Assembly (NCBI RefSeq): GCF_024700885.2
Contig: NZ_CP117016.1
Length of the DNA stretch: 64,000 bases
DNA from: Escherichia coli
GTDB taxonomy: Bacteria > Pseudomonadota > Gammaproteobacteria > Enterobacterales > Enterobacteriaceae
Strand: one strand, 5' to 3'
Below the pieces are notes generated by a model. The model searched no databases. It saw only the letters and a list, made by a program, of their open reading frames with translations, and was not told the DNA's origin. A program made the translations under genes and the position numbers. This document shows positions 25,545 to 56,619 of the stretch, in pieces; position 1 is the stretch's first letter, and every line of letters starts with the position of its first letter.

Positions 25545-25936
25545 AGTAAAACCTGGCATTTTACTCGTCGTCTTTTGGCTTACAGGTGCGGCAGCTGCGT
25601 TCGTTCACCTCTGTCACTTACTGTTGTAAGCTCCCGGGGATTCACTCACTTGCTGCCTTCCTGCAAACCAAAATCCATAGAGTAATTTGTTAATCATAGG
25701 CCGAAGCCGTTCTAGGTTTGCGTTGCGTTTGAGGAGGTAAATTGACCGCTATCCTGCAGTGATGTTGCCAGAGATACGCGCGCGTAAAGTAAGGTAAATA
25801 ACTGAGTGGTTATTTTAGGGATGTAAGCGGTCAGGAATGGCGGTGAGCGGTTGGGCAAGAATTATTCATCGGGTGGATATGTGATTGAGATCACAATAAA
25901 AATGCCCCTTCGACGAATGCGTGAAGGGGCTGGAGC

Positions 25937-47150: not shown

Positions 47151-47624
47151 TTATACGCGAGGGCGCTTGCGGTACAACCATAATCCAGGAATGGAAAGAC
47201 CGATGGATAACGCACCAACAATTGATGAAGCTGTAAGAAAGTTGGTTAACAGGGTAATCATCAACGGTTCGCTGTAACCTAGTTGGCTGATTTTTACCGC
47301 CGAAATCATTGCGGTATAAGCCGATATGCCAGGGAACATAGGAATAACAGCCGCCACGGTAAACACTTTCGGATGCGCCAGATACCAGCGCGACCATTGA
47401 ATACCAATGGTGCCGACCAGCATAGAAGCCATAAAAGTTGACCACTCAATATTCAGCCCGCTGGTCATTAAGATCATTCGGGAACCATGACCTATCGAGC
47501 CAAGCAGCGCACACCAGCGTAACGCCCGCACGGGAACGTTGAACACCATCGCAAAGCCGACCGCAGGAATGGCGGCGAGGATCATATCCTGCGCCAACGC
47601 TAACAGAAATTCGATCACACCCAT
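47151..47624 (-). CDS. yjjB: Inner-membrane protein YjjB (ThrE-family partner)
   Basis: Hydrophobic protein of about 157 aa; synteny. Confidence 0.75.
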
Positions 47625-48385
47625 CCGCGTAGCCCCCAAATCGTCAGTGCCATCACTACGCCGACGCAGGTAGCCAGTGTCAGCAGACTGGCGATCGCCC
47701 AGCGTGCCAGTCCGGTATTGATGTGGCCTTTAAACATATCGGCGACGGCATTAATCAACGGAAAACCCGGCACCAGCAGCAGAACGCTGGCGGCCATCGC
47801 GATAGTGGGTGTATTGCTGAAAGTGGGAAGTTGCAAAAGCAAACCGGAAATGGTGGTGGCGGCGAAAGCGGTGAGGCAAAAGTTGATCTGTGGATGAAGA
47901 TGACGTTGTGCCAGCAGCTGGCGGATATACATCGCGACCGTACTGGCAAAGAAGGTGATGACGGCACCATCCCAGCCACCTTTATTGAGTTTACAGAAAC
48001 AGGCGCAAGAAAGGCCGACCATTAAGGCTACCAGCCATCTCGGGTAACGTAATGGCTGAATTTGGCTAAATCGTTTCTCTACACCTTTGTAATCCAGCAG
48101 ATGATGCTCCGCCAGAATCACAATGTGCTGGACTTCAGTCACCACATGCATATTAATGCCGCGATCGTGATTTTTTCGTGTCGATGTCAGGCATTGCCCA
48201 TCTTTAATGGTTGTCAGCACTATGGCGTTCGAAGAGATAGAACTTTCGACGCTGTCCATTCCCAGCGCCCGACCCAGTCGTGAGGAAAGCTCATCAACCA
48301 ACGCGCTTTCCGCACCATGTTGCAAAAGAAATAATCCACACTGGATACAAAGCCGTGTTACGGCTCGCTGTTGCTCAGTTTGCAT
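47615..48385 (-). CDS. yjjP: Inner-membrane protein YjjP (ThrE family)
   Basis: ORF to 48448; start at [12 protein letters not shown] gives 256 aa; synteny. Confidence 0.75.
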
Positions 48386-48448
48386 AACTCGCCCTTTGTC
48401 ATAGACGTGATGCGTATTGTTCAGATAATGAGAATCCATTTGTATCAT

Positions 48449-49003
48449 GAAGCACGGTTGTTTTGCGGTAGGTTAAGATCAAAATTGCGCTGATTAATCT
48501 TGGTTATCAGGAGAAGCTCGGTGATAAAAAGCGAATTATCTCTCGTCGCAAACAAATTATCACATGAATATTATCACTATAATGAATTTATTGTTTAGCC
48601 TTTACGAATCAGGATAAAAGATAACTGGGCGCGTTTTTTAATTTTTACAAGTTAAAACTATCAGATTTTATTGAATAAATATTGATTGTGTGATCCCGCA
48701 TTCTGCGGGAAGGGATATCAGTTAATTATAAATTAAATGAATGAGAATTCTGTTTTTCATTAAGTATTTCTAACAACTTAATGTAGATATTTTAAATGTC
48801 TCCAGGCTATTTCACCAGGTTATCATTTGATGCTAACCTTCTGACACATGCAGTGGAGTTGTTGTGCAGCAGGAGTATGCTGATATGAAAGTGAATGCTA
48901 AGGATAATTTATTCGCTTAATCTATTAATTTGCTGGAAACATTTAAGGAATGAATATCCTGAATAAACCATCATGATTTATAGACAGTGGATGTGGAGGA
49001 AAT
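48449..49003. promoter_or_regulatory. AT-rich divergent yjjP / yjjQ-bglJ control region (H-NS-silenced, LeuO-activated in K-12)
   Basis: Roughly 550 bp of very AT-rich non-coding DNA; regulatory role from established K-12 knowledge. Confidence 0.5.
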
Positions 49004-49729
49004 ATGTTGCCAGGATGCTGCAAAAATGGAATTGTTATCAGTAAAATACCTGTTATGCAAGCAGGGTTAAAAGAGGTCATGAGGACTCACTTCCCTGAAT
49101 ATGAAATAATATCCAGCGCCTCTGCGGAGGACCTTACCTTATTACAATTACGTCGTTCCGGATTAGTCATTGCTGATTTAGCCGGTGAAAGTGAAGATCC
49201 ACGTTCTGTTTGTGAACATTATTATTCTTTAATCTCACAATATCGGGAAATTCACTGGGTTTTCATGGTGTCACGTTCCTGGTATTCCCAGGCAGTAGAA
49301 TTGCTCATGTGCCCTACGGCGACGTTATTGTCTGATGTTGAACCCATTGAGAATCTGGTCAAGACCGTTCGTTCCGGCAATACGCACGCAGAGCGTATCA
49401 GCGCCATGCTGACCTCTCCGGCAATGACTGAAACTCATGATTTTAGCTATCGCTCCGTCATTCTCACTCTTTCAGAGCGTAAAGTGCTGCGGCTATTAGG
49501 TAAAGGATGGGGCATCAACCAGATAGCTTCATTGCTTAAGAAAAGTAATAAAACTATCAGCGCCCAAAAAAACAGTGCGATGCGTCGACTGGCAATTCAC
49601 AGCAACGCTGAAATGTATGCATGGATAAATAGCGCGCAGGGTGCAAGAGAACTTAACTTGCCTTCTGTTTATGGAGATGCCGCAGAATGGAACACAGCCG
49701 AATTAAGAAGAGAAATGTCGCACTCATAG
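49004..49729 (+). CDS. yjjQ: LuxR/FixJ-type transcriptional regulator YjjQ
   Basis: C-terminal LuxR-type HTH; 241 aa. Confidence 0.85.
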
Positions 49730-50364
49730 AAAAATGCGTCATGAGTAGTATCGGTATTGAGAGTTTATTCAGAAAGTTTGCGGGTAACCCTTATAAGCTC
49801 CATACCTATACCAGTCAGGAGTCATTTCAGGATGCCATGTCGCGGATCTCGTTTGCGGCGGTCATTTTTTCTTTTTCTGCCATGAGAAGTGAGCGCAGAG
49901 AGGGATTATCATGCCTGACTGAACTGGCGATTAAGTTCCCGCGTACCCGGCGTTTAGTTATTGCGGATGATGATATTGAAGCTCGGCTGATTGGTTCATT
50001 GTCGCCATCACCGCTGGACGGTGTATTAAGTAAAGCGTCAACGCTGGAGATTTTTCATCAGGAACTCTTTTTGTCATTAAATGGTGTACGTCAGGCGACC
50101 GACCGACTGAACAATCAGTGGTACATTAATCAAAGCCGAACGCTAAGCCCGACGGAGAGAGAAATATTGCGCTTTATGTCGCGTGGCTACTCAATGACAC
50201 AAATTGCCGAGCAGCTTAAACGCAATATCAAAACGATCCGTGCACATAAATTTAATGTGATGTCGAAACTGGGCGTCAGTTCTGATGCAGGGTTGTTGGA
50301 GGCCGCAGATATTCTGTTATGTATGCGGCATTGCGAAGCAAGTAATGTGTTGCATCCCTATTAA
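49687..50364 (+). CDS. bglJ: LuxR/FixJ-type regulator BglJ
   Basis: 225 aa, C-terminal LuxR HTH; overlaps the yjjQ 3' end. Confidence 0.85.
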
Positions 50365-50401
50365 TCCGCATGATGCCGGGTTTACTTCCCCGGCAGTGCT
50401 T

Positions 50402-51190
50402 TCATTTCAGCGTACAATCGCCACATTGCTGCACATCCGGTAACCGATAACGCTGGCAGCAAGTGCGGCGCACCAGCAGGCCGTCGCGCAGTACCACGGT
50501 ACGCCAGAGTGGATTATCTTCACCGTTCGTGAGCATTTTCTCAAAAAAGAGGGCATGGCGCAGCGATTCAACCGTCGCCTCGCCAAGCAGCTGCTTCATC
50601 TCAGTGAGATACCAGTTGATCAAATAACCGGTATTACTCCAGATAAGTTTGCCGTTGATCTCTCCCGTCGCTTCTAATGCCTGCACAACCGGAACCAGCG
50701 CCTGGCTGATTAACGTTTCCATTCGCTGCTGCGGCGAATGTAGTGTTGCGTTTTTATCTTCACACACATCGACCCAGAAACAGGCGGCGCGTCCGGTTTC
50801 GTGAAACTCAACGTGGAAATGTTCCGGCGACACATCTAATGCTTTTTCCTGCGTCAGCAGCGCCAACATTAATGGTTGCACCATCAGGCCGATATACCAT
50901 TGCGCCCATAGTGAGATCAGCGGTTTGTTCTCGCGGATCATCGTTGGTTGGTTGCGATAGATATGATCGGAATAGACCGCCAGTAGAGAACTTAGCGCAT
51001 TCGTTGATGACCATTGCGCCAGCGTCATGGCGTTAAGCGGAGCGGGTTCATCCAGGCGGATAAACTCGAGCAAATGTTCACGATGTTCGGCGATCGTCGT
51101 CCGTATGGCTTGTGCAAGCCCAGCATCCTGCGGCTGGAGATGCGTTCGCCAGATAACATCTTCATAGAGCGGTGCGGAACGATAGGCCAT
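50402..51190 (-). CDS. fhuF: Ferric-siderophore reductase FhuF
   Basis: 262 aa with C-terminal Cys cluster (C-C-x10-C-x2-C); synteny. Confidence 0.85.
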   Translation of the reverse strand: MAYRSAPLYEDVIWRTHLQPQDAGLAQAIRTTIAEHREHLLEFIRLDEPAPLNAMTLAQWSSTNALSSLLAVYSDHIYRNQPTMIRENKPLISLWAQWYIGLMVQPLMLALLTQEKALDVSPEHFHVEFHETGRAACFWVDVCEDKNATLHSPQQRMETLISQALVPVVQALEATGEINGKLIWSNTGYLINWYLTEMKQLLGEATVESLRHALFFEKMLTNGEDNPLWRTVVLRDGLLVRRTCCQRYRLPDVQQCGDCTLK

Positions 51191-55268: not shown

Positions 55269-56486
55269 ATGGCGCTGTCTGATGCGTGGTTGCGTTCAGT
55301 CGTTGGAAAGGAACGTGATAAGGTTTTGGTTAAATCCGATCGTGATGGTCTGTCTGTCAGAGTATCACCGAAAGGTCGCGTAGTGTTCCAATATCGTTAT
55401 CAATGGGCAGGGAAAGGTGAGCGCCTTGATATCGGAACTTACCCGGCAACTGGATTAAAAGAGGCCAGAGAAGAAGTTATCCGTCTCCGTGGTGAACTCG
55501 AGTCAAACCGCAATCCACGATTAGTCAGGCAGGCTGAAAAACGAAAAGCTACTGAAGCCATGACGGTAGAGTCTGTGATCCGTGCCTGGTATGAAGCATA
55601 TTGTGTAAAAAATAAAAAAGGTTCTGAACAGATACTCCGCTCGTTTGAGCTGCACCTGTTCTCTAAAATCGGGAATATCCCTCACGATGCAGCTACATTG
55701 CATGATTGGTTAGAAGTCCTGGAGCCTCTTAGCACTAAGACTCCAGCAATAGCAGACCGATTGCTAATTAACGCAAAGCAGGCCCATGTCTGGGCGTATA
55801 AGAGAAAGCTCATTGAAACTCGCCCACTGTCGGATATCACGGGTAAAGATATGGATATCCGTAAAGGTCAGAAGAAACGGTTTCTGACACATGATGAAAT
55901 TAAAATCCTTTATGCTGCGATCGATGGTTCTCGAATGGTTCCTAAATACCGGGCCTTCATTAAACTATTGCTGCATTTTGGCTGCCGTAGTTCAGAGCTA
56001 ATTACCGCCAGGGTGGACGATTTTGATTTCATTAATAAAGTATGGACTGTACCACCAGAACGACATAAGACTGGGGAGATAACAGGCGAACCGCTAAAGC
56101 GGCCCATTATTGAACCGGTTGAAGAGCTTATAAAGTACGCTATTTCTATGAACAATGGTTCCGATATGCTTTTTACTAAGGAAGGAAGCAGGGAACCCGT
56201 TGGTCGGACATCATTGCAGTCGCTGCCTTACAATTTAATGCAGTACGCATGGCGGCGTTTGGGGTATCAATTCCCTCATTGGTCTCTTCATGATTTGAGG
56301 CGAACAGCACGAACAAACTTTTCTGATCTTACTGCGCCTCATATTGCAGAAATAATGCTAGGTCATAAACTGCCAGGGGTATGGCAGGTTTATGACAAGA
56401 GCGATTATTTAGATGAACAGCGTAAAGCTTACCAGGCATGGTGGGAGAGAGTTGAATCGATAGTTACTTGTACTTGTTCAGACTAG
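55269..56486 (+). CDS. int: Tyrosine-type phage integrase (P4-like family)
   Basis: 405 aa; N-terminal arm-binding-like region and C-terminal catalytic motifs (..HDLRRTARTN.., ..LGHK..); sits at the junction with truncated prfC. Confidence 0.85.
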   Translation: MALSDAWLRSVVGKERDKVLVKSDRDGLSVRVSPKGRVVFQYRYQWAGKGERLDIGTYPATGLKEAREEVIRLRGELESNRNPRLVRQAEKRKATEAMTVESVIRAWYEAYCVKNKKGSEQILRSFELHLFSKIGNIPHDAATLHDWLEVLEPLSTKTPAIADRLLINAKQAHVWAYKRKLIETRPLSDITGKDMDIRKGQKKRFLTHDEIKILYAAIDGSRMVPKYRAFIKLLLHFGCRSSELITARVDDFDFINKVWTVPPERHKTGEITGEPLKRPIIEPVEELIKYAISMNNGSDMLFTKEGSREPVGRTSLQSLPYNLMQYAWRRLGYQFPHWSLHDLRRTARTNFSDLTAPHIAEIMLGHKLPGVWQVYDKSDYLDEQRKAYQAWWERVESIVTCTCSD

Positions 56487-56619
56487 AACTGACATTTTGC
56501 ATAGGCAGAACGCAATTATGCATATTGCGGTATAATCCCCTTCTTAAAACTGTAAGAACTGCTTGCTAATCCTTGCAGTTTTTGATTATAACATTTTTAT
56601 TTGTTTATTAGGATTTTTG

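Follow-up and report, generated by a model that had tools for sequence, protein, structure and literature searches.

Described Systems Closest to the Locus

H-NS/LeuO control of the spacer between yjjP and yjjQ is already known from work on Escherichia coli K-12. As a sequence-only reading of the DNA examined here had also stated, the yjjQ-bglJ operon of that strain is under repression by H-NS, and LeuO activates it (PMC5025477; PMC3950696; PMC2646131; each citing Stratmann et al. 2008). The spacer is bound by H-NS, which keeps the units on both sides repressed (PMC3946193, PMC5025477, PMC3950696). Genomic SELEX places both H-NS and the RpoD holoenzyme on the spacer (PMC3946193), and a peak of the RpoS holoenzyme lies there as well (PMC5493296). 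The two genes are co-transcribed in K-12 according to the literature (PMC5025477). BglJ is a partner of RcsB (PMC3950696), the targets of BglJ-RcsB being leuO, bgl, and other loci; BglJ-RcsB activates leuO, and yjjQ-bglJ belongs to a feedback circuit with LeuO and H-NS (PMC5025477). When the native operon is activated by LeuO under laboratory conditions, BglJ stays too low to matter (PMC5025477). An increase of bglJ in serum has been described for an ExPEC strain (PMC4145685), and YjjQ is a reported repressor of flagellar and capsule genes (EcoCyc table). Insertions of IS elements in the spacer are recurrent and beneficial in the mouse gut, with yjjP expression raised twofold (PMC5094792).

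Unusually long AT-rich spacers before a gene for a GerE/LuxR-type regulator are also found at csgD and gadE, where H-NS and several other factors are bound (csgD is described in PMC3946193). In comparison, far fewer regulators are documented for yjjQ-bglJ, and no inducing condition is described (PMC5025477). The bgl silencer and the leuO region, where LeuO or BglJ-RcsB antagonizes H-NS, are likewise AT-rich, repressed by H-NS, relieved by LeuO or by IS elements, and part of the same network (PMC5025477, PMC3950696, PMC2646131). Unlike these two, the yjjP/yjjQ spacer controls a divergent pair of transcription units and hardly varies across E. coli on its yjjQ side. Work by Nagarajavel et al. 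in 2007 is said to place an extra, downstream H-NS site inside the transcription unit of bgl.

Extent and Orientation of the Spacer

The DNA analyzed here is a single stretch of 64,000 nucleotides, referred to as the window. A 2.8-kb part of it around the spacer is 100% identical to strain MLI114 and is found in 5424 of 5426 complete E. coli genomes; judged by these matches, the stretch is E. coli chromosome. The spacer itself was found in 5422 of the 5426. In both MLI114 and K-12 MG1655, the RefSeq gene order is dnaC-dnaT-yjjB-yjjP on the minus strand, yjjQ-bglJ on the plus strand, and fhuF, and the names yjjQ and bglJ follow RefSeq in the identical strain and in K-12. Over 801 bp that span the spacer, identity to K-12 is 98%, with the same gene order and annotation, and positions 48771-48974 are identical. 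The alignment bears out the earlier assignment to the K-12 operon and shows the locus to be orthologous to yjjP/yjjQ-bglJ of K-12. The genes and the spacer between them are as follows.

47615-48385, minus strand: yjjP coding sequence, 256 aa, ThrE-family exporter subunit (Pfam ThrE, E = 1.5e-69; RefSeq, K-12 and MLI114)
48386-49003, no strand: yjjP-yjjQ intergenic control region, 618 bp, of which the 555 bp noted earlier are the right-hand part
49004-49729, plus strand: yjjQ coding sequence, 241 aa, LuxR/GerE-type helix-turn-helix regulator (Pfam GerE, E = 6.6e-08; RefSeq)
49687-50364, plus strand: bglJ coding sequence, 225 aa, LuxR/GerE-type regulator (Pfam GerE, E = 1.3e-12; RefSeq)

The C-terminal helix-turn-helix model PF00196 (GerE) scores YjjQ at 32.5 bits and BglJ at 47.5 bits, with a cutoff of 23.5. 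For the left end of the spacer, the sequence-only reading had used position 48449, a border that follows from the longest possible yjjP open reading frame (ORF), which reaches 48448. The RefSeq start of yjjP lies 63 nt further in, at 48385, and the spacer therefore measures 618 bp (48386-49003). In the sequence, AAGGG lies six bases upstream of the ATG at 48385, and nothing comparable precedes the ATG at 48448. The 63-nt N-terminal extension was rejected, as it has no Shine-Dalgarno sequence and is interrupted by a frameshift or a stop codon in one strain of E. coli and two other Escherichia species. The 2008 abstract of Stratmann, Madhusudan, and Schnetz reportedly gives a 555-bp intergenic region with H-NS bound at its center; we take the 555 bp noted earlier to be this same spacer length, based on an older, longer yjjP start.

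The description of this DNA as a control region upstream of yjjQ-bglJ holds for yjjQ but is incomplete. Since yjjP is encoded on the minus strand, the spacer is a shared divergent (bidirectional) control region that serves yjjP as well. In our view, yjjP(-yjjB) and the yjjQ-bglJ operon very likely share the 618-bp AT-rich spacer as their control region, for which we propose the following mechanism. H-NS would nucleate on the AT-rich core through shape readout, with no specific sequence, and would spread or bridge over the flanking promoters. LeuO would bind specific sites (the candidates being 48939-48957 and a half-site at 48565-48571) and restructure the H-NS complex, whereupon RNA polymerase could use the promoter CTGATA-17-GATAAT (48880-48908). 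Finally, bglJ would be translated by ribosomes coupled to the translation of yjjQ via a 43-nt overlap. The interpretation as a region under H-NS/LeuO control is supported, and the sequence features are consistent with it as had been claimed; binding of H-NS and LeuO to this particular allele is putative and transferred from K-12. Our additions to the K-12 picture are modest refinements, namely, corrections of border and orientation, a family-wide architecture, the contrast between core and flanks, the placement of a MarA box, and a cross-genus element. They concern a locus that encodes two regulators, YjjQ and BglJ, within the LeuO/H-NS feedback circuit.

Base Composition of the Spacer

Over the 555 bp from 48449 to 49003, GC content is 32.8%, compared to 49.6% for the whole 64-kb window, so the region is far from GC-normal and the earlier claim of about 550 bp of AT-rich DNA before yjjQ is confirmed. 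This value corresponds to the 2nd percentile among all 555-bp windows of the stretch, and the lowest 200-bp GC content, 27%, occurs at 48600-48799. Four tracts in the window fall below 38% GC, of which the yjjP/yjjQ spacer is the only non-coding, core-genome one; the remaining three are accessory coding DNA. Given the low percentile and the accessory coding nature of the other tracts, the AT-richness of 48449-49003 is real and not a chance fluctuation. Among the accessory tracts, one contains genes for pentapeptide-repeat and SdiA-regulated-domain proteins; the rest surround a gene with a CHAT domain that adjoins an integrase.

A Hypervariable Core between Conserved Flanks

Differences from K-12 (about 24 positions) are not spread evenly but cluster in 48500-48770, where divergence is about 9%. 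This part of the spacer constitutes its AT-rich core and includes an allele-specific hairpin.

48500-48770, no strand: AT-rich core, 29.9% GC, 25.8 A/T tracts per kb
48693-48711, no strand: perfect hairpin TCCCGCA-TTC-TGCGGGA, specific to this allele (left arm TTTTGCA in K-12)

Nucleotide diversity was calculated from an alignment of nine diverse E. coli strains. The core has a diversity of 0.067, compared to 0.018 at all sites and 0.046 at third codon positions for yjjP, and 0.010 and 0.023, respectively, for yjjQ; core diversity is thus at or above the local neutral (synonymous-site) proxy. On the yjjQ side, the diversity of 48784-48883 is 0.000, and the 131 bp of 48784-48914 contain no variable site among the nine strains. 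The same contrast is seen in the larger genome collection. Of 5418 E. coli genomes, 5365 carry 48784-48914 with an identity of 99% or more. For a core sample of equal length (48600-48730, 131 bp), only 13 of 5416 complete genomes match this allele at that level, 669 match it at 95-99%, 3694 at 90-95%, and 1037 at 80-90%. Between Escherichia species, the core is unalignable, and its AT-richness is retained. The spacer is a mosaic: conserved blocks next to the promoters flank a core that is hypervariable yet AT-rich throughout.

Such a mosaic would fit a protein that reads composition or shape on the core and sequence-specific elements at the flanks. We presume the core to be the zone of H-NS nucleation and spreading; shape readout by H-NS would explain how its sequence can drift freely while composition is kept. 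As a secondary possibility, diversifying or relaxed selection may act on the core and tune the strength of silencing between lineages. The high-affinity H-NS motif TCGATAAATT was not enriched above composition-matched shuffles of the spacer (4 matches versus 1.6 expected, P = 0.09), and its matches, although 4.8 times denser in the spacer than in the window, are explained by composition alone. In a search for direct and inverted repeats, only short, chance-like AT-rich pairs were retrieved. The perfect hairpin, which is present in this allele only and not in K-12, is not followed by a T-run and is probably incidental.

The rapid turnover of the core also raises the question of whether the spacer is unconstrained junk whose AT-richness reflects mutational drift, as would be suggested by a core that evolves at or above the synonymous-site proxy and cannot be aligned between species. 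We find this extremely improbable: AT-richness and length are kept in 48 species despite the turnover of sequence, the flanks are strongly conserved, and protein binding and regulation are documented for K-12 (PMC5025477, PMC3950696, PMC3946193, PMC5684230, PMC5493296).

Insertion sequences have also entered the spacer in natural isolates. One complete genome carries IS1 in place of most of the spacer and the 5' end of yjjQ, and another strain has IS10-family copies inserted at about 48831. Together with the insertions obtained in the mouse gut, these fit a relief of silencing by disruption of the region.

Candidate LeuO Sites and the yjjP Side

To search for LeuO sites, we inferred the core motif ATATTCA-N5-TGAATAT from the K-12 cas and leuO spacers, following the description in PMC6698644. 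In K-12, the motif is perfect in the cas spacer and carries one half-site mismatch in the leuO spacer. The best match to it and two conserved blocks on the yjjP side are as follows.

48939-48957, no strand: candidate LeuO core-type palindrome ACATTTA-AGGAA-TGAATAT, agreeing at 12 of 14 positions with the self-inferred motif
48471-48496, minus strand: yjjP-proximal block GGTTAAGATCAAAATTGCGCTGATTA, invariant in 7 Escherichia sequences
48564-48577, minus strand: TATGAATATTATCA, conserved in Escherichia

Only one other site of this kind exists in the 64 kb, and shuffling of the spacer gives P = 0.013 for the palindrome. Exact TGAATAT half-sites occur at 48951 and at 48565, the latter (48565-48571) within TATGAATATTATCA. 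The palindrome and the half-sites are candidate LeuO sites on the strength of these matches. For K-12, the Stratmann abstract reportedly places LeuO sites at the center of the intergenic region and over the yjjP promoter.

In addition to the half-site, TATGAATATTATCA holds a promoter-like yjjP -10 hexamer, GATAAT (minus strand, 48570-48575), with TAAACA at 48592-48597, and may thus contribute to a yjjP promoter. Closer to the gene, GGTTAAGATCAAAATTGCGCTGATTA includes TTGATC (minus strand, 48477-48482), which is invariant in all 18 aligned sequences, from about 13 genera; this block is a candidate promoter or operator element of yjjP.

The Near-Invariant yjjQ-Proximal Block

The conserved DNA on the yjjQ side comprises the following features.

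48784-48914, plus strand: near-invariant block of the yjjQ-proximal regulatory region, 131 bp (nine strains and 5365 of 5418 genomes)
48880-48908, plus strand: sigma-70 promoter-like CTGATA-17-GATAAT of yjjQ-bglJ, from a consensus scan, conserved in Escherichia
48819-48833, minus strand: marbox GCATCAAATGATAAC, an exact match to a reported MarA site, with 0.02 chance matches expected
48995-48999, plus strand: Shine-Dalgarno sequence GGAGG, 4 nt before the yjjQ ATG, its GGAG invariant in 20 of 20 aligned sequences

CTGATA-17-GATAAT is also listed as the yjjQ-bglJ promoter in the literature (PMC3946193). Transcription is predicted to start near 48915, which would give a leader of about 88 nt. 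Neither of the two leader RNAs folded better than shuffles (z = -0.50 and +0.41). The marbox falls inside the invariant block. In a MarA ChIP-seq study of the ETEC strain H10407, a strong peak is reported between yjjP and yjjQ, with the predicted box gcatcaaatgataac (PMC5684230); this 15-mer is present exactly at 48819-48833, and the binding of MarA was shown in H10407, which is another strain. Other Escherichia species show 1-2 mismatches in the marbox. The box is centered about 89 bp upstream of the start predicted near 48915. To our knowledge, this distance is not a usual position for an activating marbox.

A block of such constancy might also represent an unannotated gene, for a small protein or a small RNA, hidden in the spacer. 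The best case for a hidden gene is a 30-aa ORF at 48796-48888, which lies inside the invariant block and is intact in 9 of 9 E. coli strains, in L011, and in E. albertii. However, on a reading of the sequence this ORF has no Shine-Dalgarno sequence, and three other Escherichia lineages carry indels that disrupt it. More generally, none of the small ORFs in the spacer stays intact across Escherichia species, and the spacer encodes no conserved protein whose presence would have spoken against the control region that had been proposed. For a small RNA, an Rfam scan of 48000-50600 returned no match at E <= 1, a terminator scan of 48200-49200 returned no terminator-like site, and the folding of the leaders is no better than that of shuffles. 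The K-12 annotation is empty in the spacer, and the block is occupied by the promoter and by a marbox verified by ChIP. A hidden gene is therefore very unlikely, and we continue to regard the block as part of the shared control region.

For practical purposes, the comparison yields a map of the drifting part of the spacer (the core) and of its frozen parts (48784-48914 and 48760-48799), with a published MarA site placed in a frozen part. The frozen parts are the places to mutate in a search for the missing inducing signal.

A 40-bp Element Shared across Genera

Apart from the GGAGG, a single non-coding sequence on the yjjQ side could be aligned across genera.

48760-48799, plus strand: bipartite element TTAAGTATTTCTAAC...ATATTTTAAATGT, 40 bp, conserved across genera

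Box 1 of the element is an inverted repeat of the TTAG-N5-CTAA type. A position weight matrix was trained on 20 species, with the 95th percentile of shuffles as the threshold. It retrieved a match in 45 of 54 species outside the training set, at a median start of -247 from the yjjQ ATG, and the TTAG-N5-CTAA palindrome with at most one mismatch was found in 52 of 73 species (26% expected), concentrated at -250 to -200; these counts overstate independence because the species are related, yet the sequence surrounding the element has diverged beyond alignment. A hand-written regular expression for the two boxes matched in 4 of 74 species.

Several known factors were considered for the element and rejected. 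A BglJ-RcsB site is represented by only the 6-mer TTCTAA, which fits the TTc-AA core and is weak in AT-rich DNA. The element bears no resemblance to the LeuO core ATATTCA-N5-TGAATAT. As a sigma-70 promoter, its best arrangement (CTAACA-17-TAAATG) agrees with the consensus at no more than 7 of 12 positions, and conservation between genera does not extend to the final base of the -10 hexamer. Autoregulation by YjjQ via TTAG-N5-CTAA was rejected as well, as no match was found (1.5 expected) in 1901 bp of upstream regions of reported YjjQ targets (flhD, ompC, gfcA, yfiR/yfiL, ybhL, and ymiA). The target list reportedly goes back to an abstract of Wiebe et al. from 2015.

Both the near-invariance of the 131 bp and the existence of the cross-genus element suggest that, besides H-NS and LeuO, factors recognizing specific sequences act here. 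In the strong form of this idea, such regulators (MarA/SoxS/Rob at the marbox and a further factor at 48760-48799) would dominate, and H-NS/LeuO would form a background layer. This reading is partly complementary to control by H-NS and LeuO. We give it some, if limited, credence. A block that is near-invariant in 99% of E. coli genomes is more than H-NS and LeuO, with their degenerate specificity, would call for, and the 40-bp element recurs at about -250 in most genera, even with pobR as the upstream neighbor. In addition, the exact box from the MarA ChIP-seq study is present (PMC5684230), LeuO alone yields too little BglJ (PMC5025477), and bglJ rises in serum in ExPEC (PMC4145685). On the other hand, the accessible part of the MarA study reports no effect of MarA on the expression of yjjQ or yjjP (PMC5684230), the center of the marbox lies some 89 bp upstream of the predicted start, the box carries 1-2 mismatches in other Escherichia, and the species counts come from relatives and are not independent.

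More specifically, the yjjQ-proximal spacer could be the docking platform of a further sequence-specific regulator, a proposal that we regard as rather doubtful. If it were true, the identity of this factor would reveal by which natural signal the cryptic yjjQ-bglJ operon is turned on and then, via BglJ-RcsB, leuO, bgl, and other loci.

The yjjQ-bglJ Overlap

The sequence-only reading had put the overlap of yjjQ and bglJ at about 40 bp in different frames, which agrees with the borders of the two coding sequences.

49687-49729, plus strand: yjjQ/bglJ overlap, 43 nt, with bglJ in frame +2 relative to yjjQ

Consistent with a single operon, the frames overlap and 48200-49200 holds no terminator-like site. 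The arrangement resembles translationally coupled overlapping pairs in that bglJ starts inside yjjQ and has a GGAG of its own (49673-49676, 10 nt upstream of the ATG at 49687) and in that overlap and frame are conserved across genera. The common coupled pairs, however, overlap by 1 or 4 nt, whereas yjjQ and bglJ overlap by 37-106 nt, which is much longer, and coupling is putative here. RNA of the overlap is no more structured than shuffles and, if anything, less so (z = +1.67); this weak structure is compatible with ribosomes reaching the bglJ start.

Across species, the overlap was followed in 70 loci, which derive from the best 80 of 112 YjjQ relatives. A frame +2 overlap was present in 68 of the 70, and the length across the loci analyzed is 37-55 nt, or up to 106 nt when counted from the first ATG. 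The two exceptions are a truncated yjjQ and a locus in which no start codon was detected. Truncation of yjjQ was seen in SCPM-O-B-8794, a genome of the species scan, and yjjQ is a pseudogene in two of the nine sampled E. coli strains.

Conservation across Enterobacteriaceae

The species scan, with one genome per species, located YjjQ relatives in 112 places, of which the best 80 were analyzed. The arrangement yjjB-yjjP<>yjjQ-bglJ...fhuF occurs in Escherichia, Citrobacter, Salmonella, Klebsiella, Enterobacter, Kluyvera, Raoultella, and others, and among the best 80 of the 112, about 70 Enterobacteriaceae species share this synteny together with an AT-rich spacer and the frame +2 overlap. There are 48 species in which yjjP and yjjQ adjoin each other directly in divergent orientation, separated by a spacer of 387-709 bp with 32-44% GC, in loci of 47-56% GC. 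In 22 species, pobA lies between yjjP and yjjQ, accompanied by pobR in the locus examined. Because AT-richness, spacer length, and the overlap are kept across species, we view them as conserved features of an ancestral locus.

Identities between genera are 55-74% for YjjQ, 39-69% for BglJ, and 83-91% for YjjP; on these figures, YjjQ and BglJ evolve much faster than YjjP. The GC contents of yjjQ (44.5%) and bglJ (45.3%) are below the window mean of 49.6%, and H-NS is a known silencer of foreign DNA (PMC2646131). Composition, rapid evolution, and silencing could all be accommodated if the spacer and yjjQ-bglJ were a recently acquired foreign islet that H-NS silences as xenogeneic DNA. This origin is highly unlikely in view of the distribution of the locus, which is present in 5422 of 5426 E. 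coli genomes with no patchiness, has no flanking mobility genes, and keeps its synteny in about 70 species (from the best 80 of the 112 relatives). Kept synteny, the lack of mobility genes, and near-universal presence instead identify the shared control region and its operon as ancestral, family-level DNA.

Conserved and variable elements of the yjjP-yjjQ spacer

The divergent spacer between yjjP and yjjQ (48386-49003) contains an AT-rich, hypervariable core (48500-48770) and the following short elements:

48477-48482: hexamer GATCAA (TTGATC on the yjjP strand), which contains a GATC site and lies roughly 90 nt before the yjjP start codon
48693-48711: perfect hairpin with a 7-bp stem, TCCCGCA-TTC-TGCGGGA
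48760-48799: bipartite 40-bp element with a TTAG-N5-CTAA-type palindrome
48819-48833, minus strand: marbox, identical to the box that MarA ChIP-seq gave for the yjjP-yjjQ spacer of ETEC H10407

The 40-bp element is kept 5' of yjjQ in most Enterobacteriaceae genera, at about -250 from the gene, among comparison loci L011 to L090 (the best 80 of 112 YjjQ relatives, one genome per species). As a LeuO core site, the element was rejected, as it does not match the core palindrome ATATTCA-N5-TGAATAT that we inferred from the K-12 cas and leuO spacers. Nor was its palindrome found in the promoters of reported YjjQ targets (flhD, ompC, gfcA, yfiR/yfiL, ybhL and ymiA). On the yjjP side, the hexamer is unchanged in 18 of 18 aligned sequences (approximately 13 genera) and may act on yjjP as an operator or as part of its promoter. 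The marbox lies inside a 131-bp block (48784-48914) that is near-invariant across E. coli.

For the core, a sample (48600-48730) diverged by 5 to 20% from the window allele in 4,731 of 5,416 E. coli genomes, and its diversity is comparable to or greater than that at third codon positions of the flanking genes. This diversity may stem from a relaxed constraint on the core, from a bias in mutation or from alleles that are old. The hairpin within the core is specific to the window's rare allele (the K-12 left arm carries TTT instead of CCC), and no T-run follows it.

Rearrangement and gene disruption at the locus

Natural insertion sequence rearrangements of the control region, similar to laboratory bglJ-constitutive transposon alleles, were observed in two comparison loci. 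In L010 (FDAARGOS_943; 3073-3836), an IS1 stands in place of most of the spacer and of the 210 nt at the 5' end of yjjQ, while L091 (TUM14759; 1-2500) carries IS10/ISVsa5 copies inserted approximately 173 bp upstream of yjjQ. In addition, several natural isolates retain an intact bglJ next to a yjjQ that is truncated or a pseudogene (frameshift or internal stop):

L008 1520-2246: yjjQ pseudogene, E. coli strain of the nine-strain sample
L009 1520-2245: yjjQ pseudogene, E. coli strain of the same sample
L013 4001-4435: truncated yjjQ, species-scan locus (strain SCPM-O-B-8794)

Gene content also varies among species. In 22 of 70 species, ∼1.8 to 2.6 kb separates yjjP and yjjQ (e.g., L078, 1653-3735, and L038, 2455-3645). 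This DNA encodes pobA (4-hydroxybenzoate hydroxylase) in the two of these loci examined, and in Klebsiella it includes an AraC-type pobR besides pobA. Between bglJ and fhuF, most genera except Escherichia carry ∼1 to 2 kb of additional genes (one YbaK-like and one PTS EIIC-like in Enterobacter).

Other sites in the window

The remaining tracts of low GC content in the window consist of accessory coding DNA:

8240-11063: pentapeptide-repeat and SdiA-regulated-domain genes, flanked by yjiL and yjiJ
56287-59074: CHAT-domain gene adjoining a tyrosine integrase and prophage-like genes

Besides the candidate LeuO site at 48939-48957 in the spacer, the window holds a single sequence that departs from the inferred core palindrome at no more than two positions, at 25862-25880 (TTATTCATCGGGTGGATAT).
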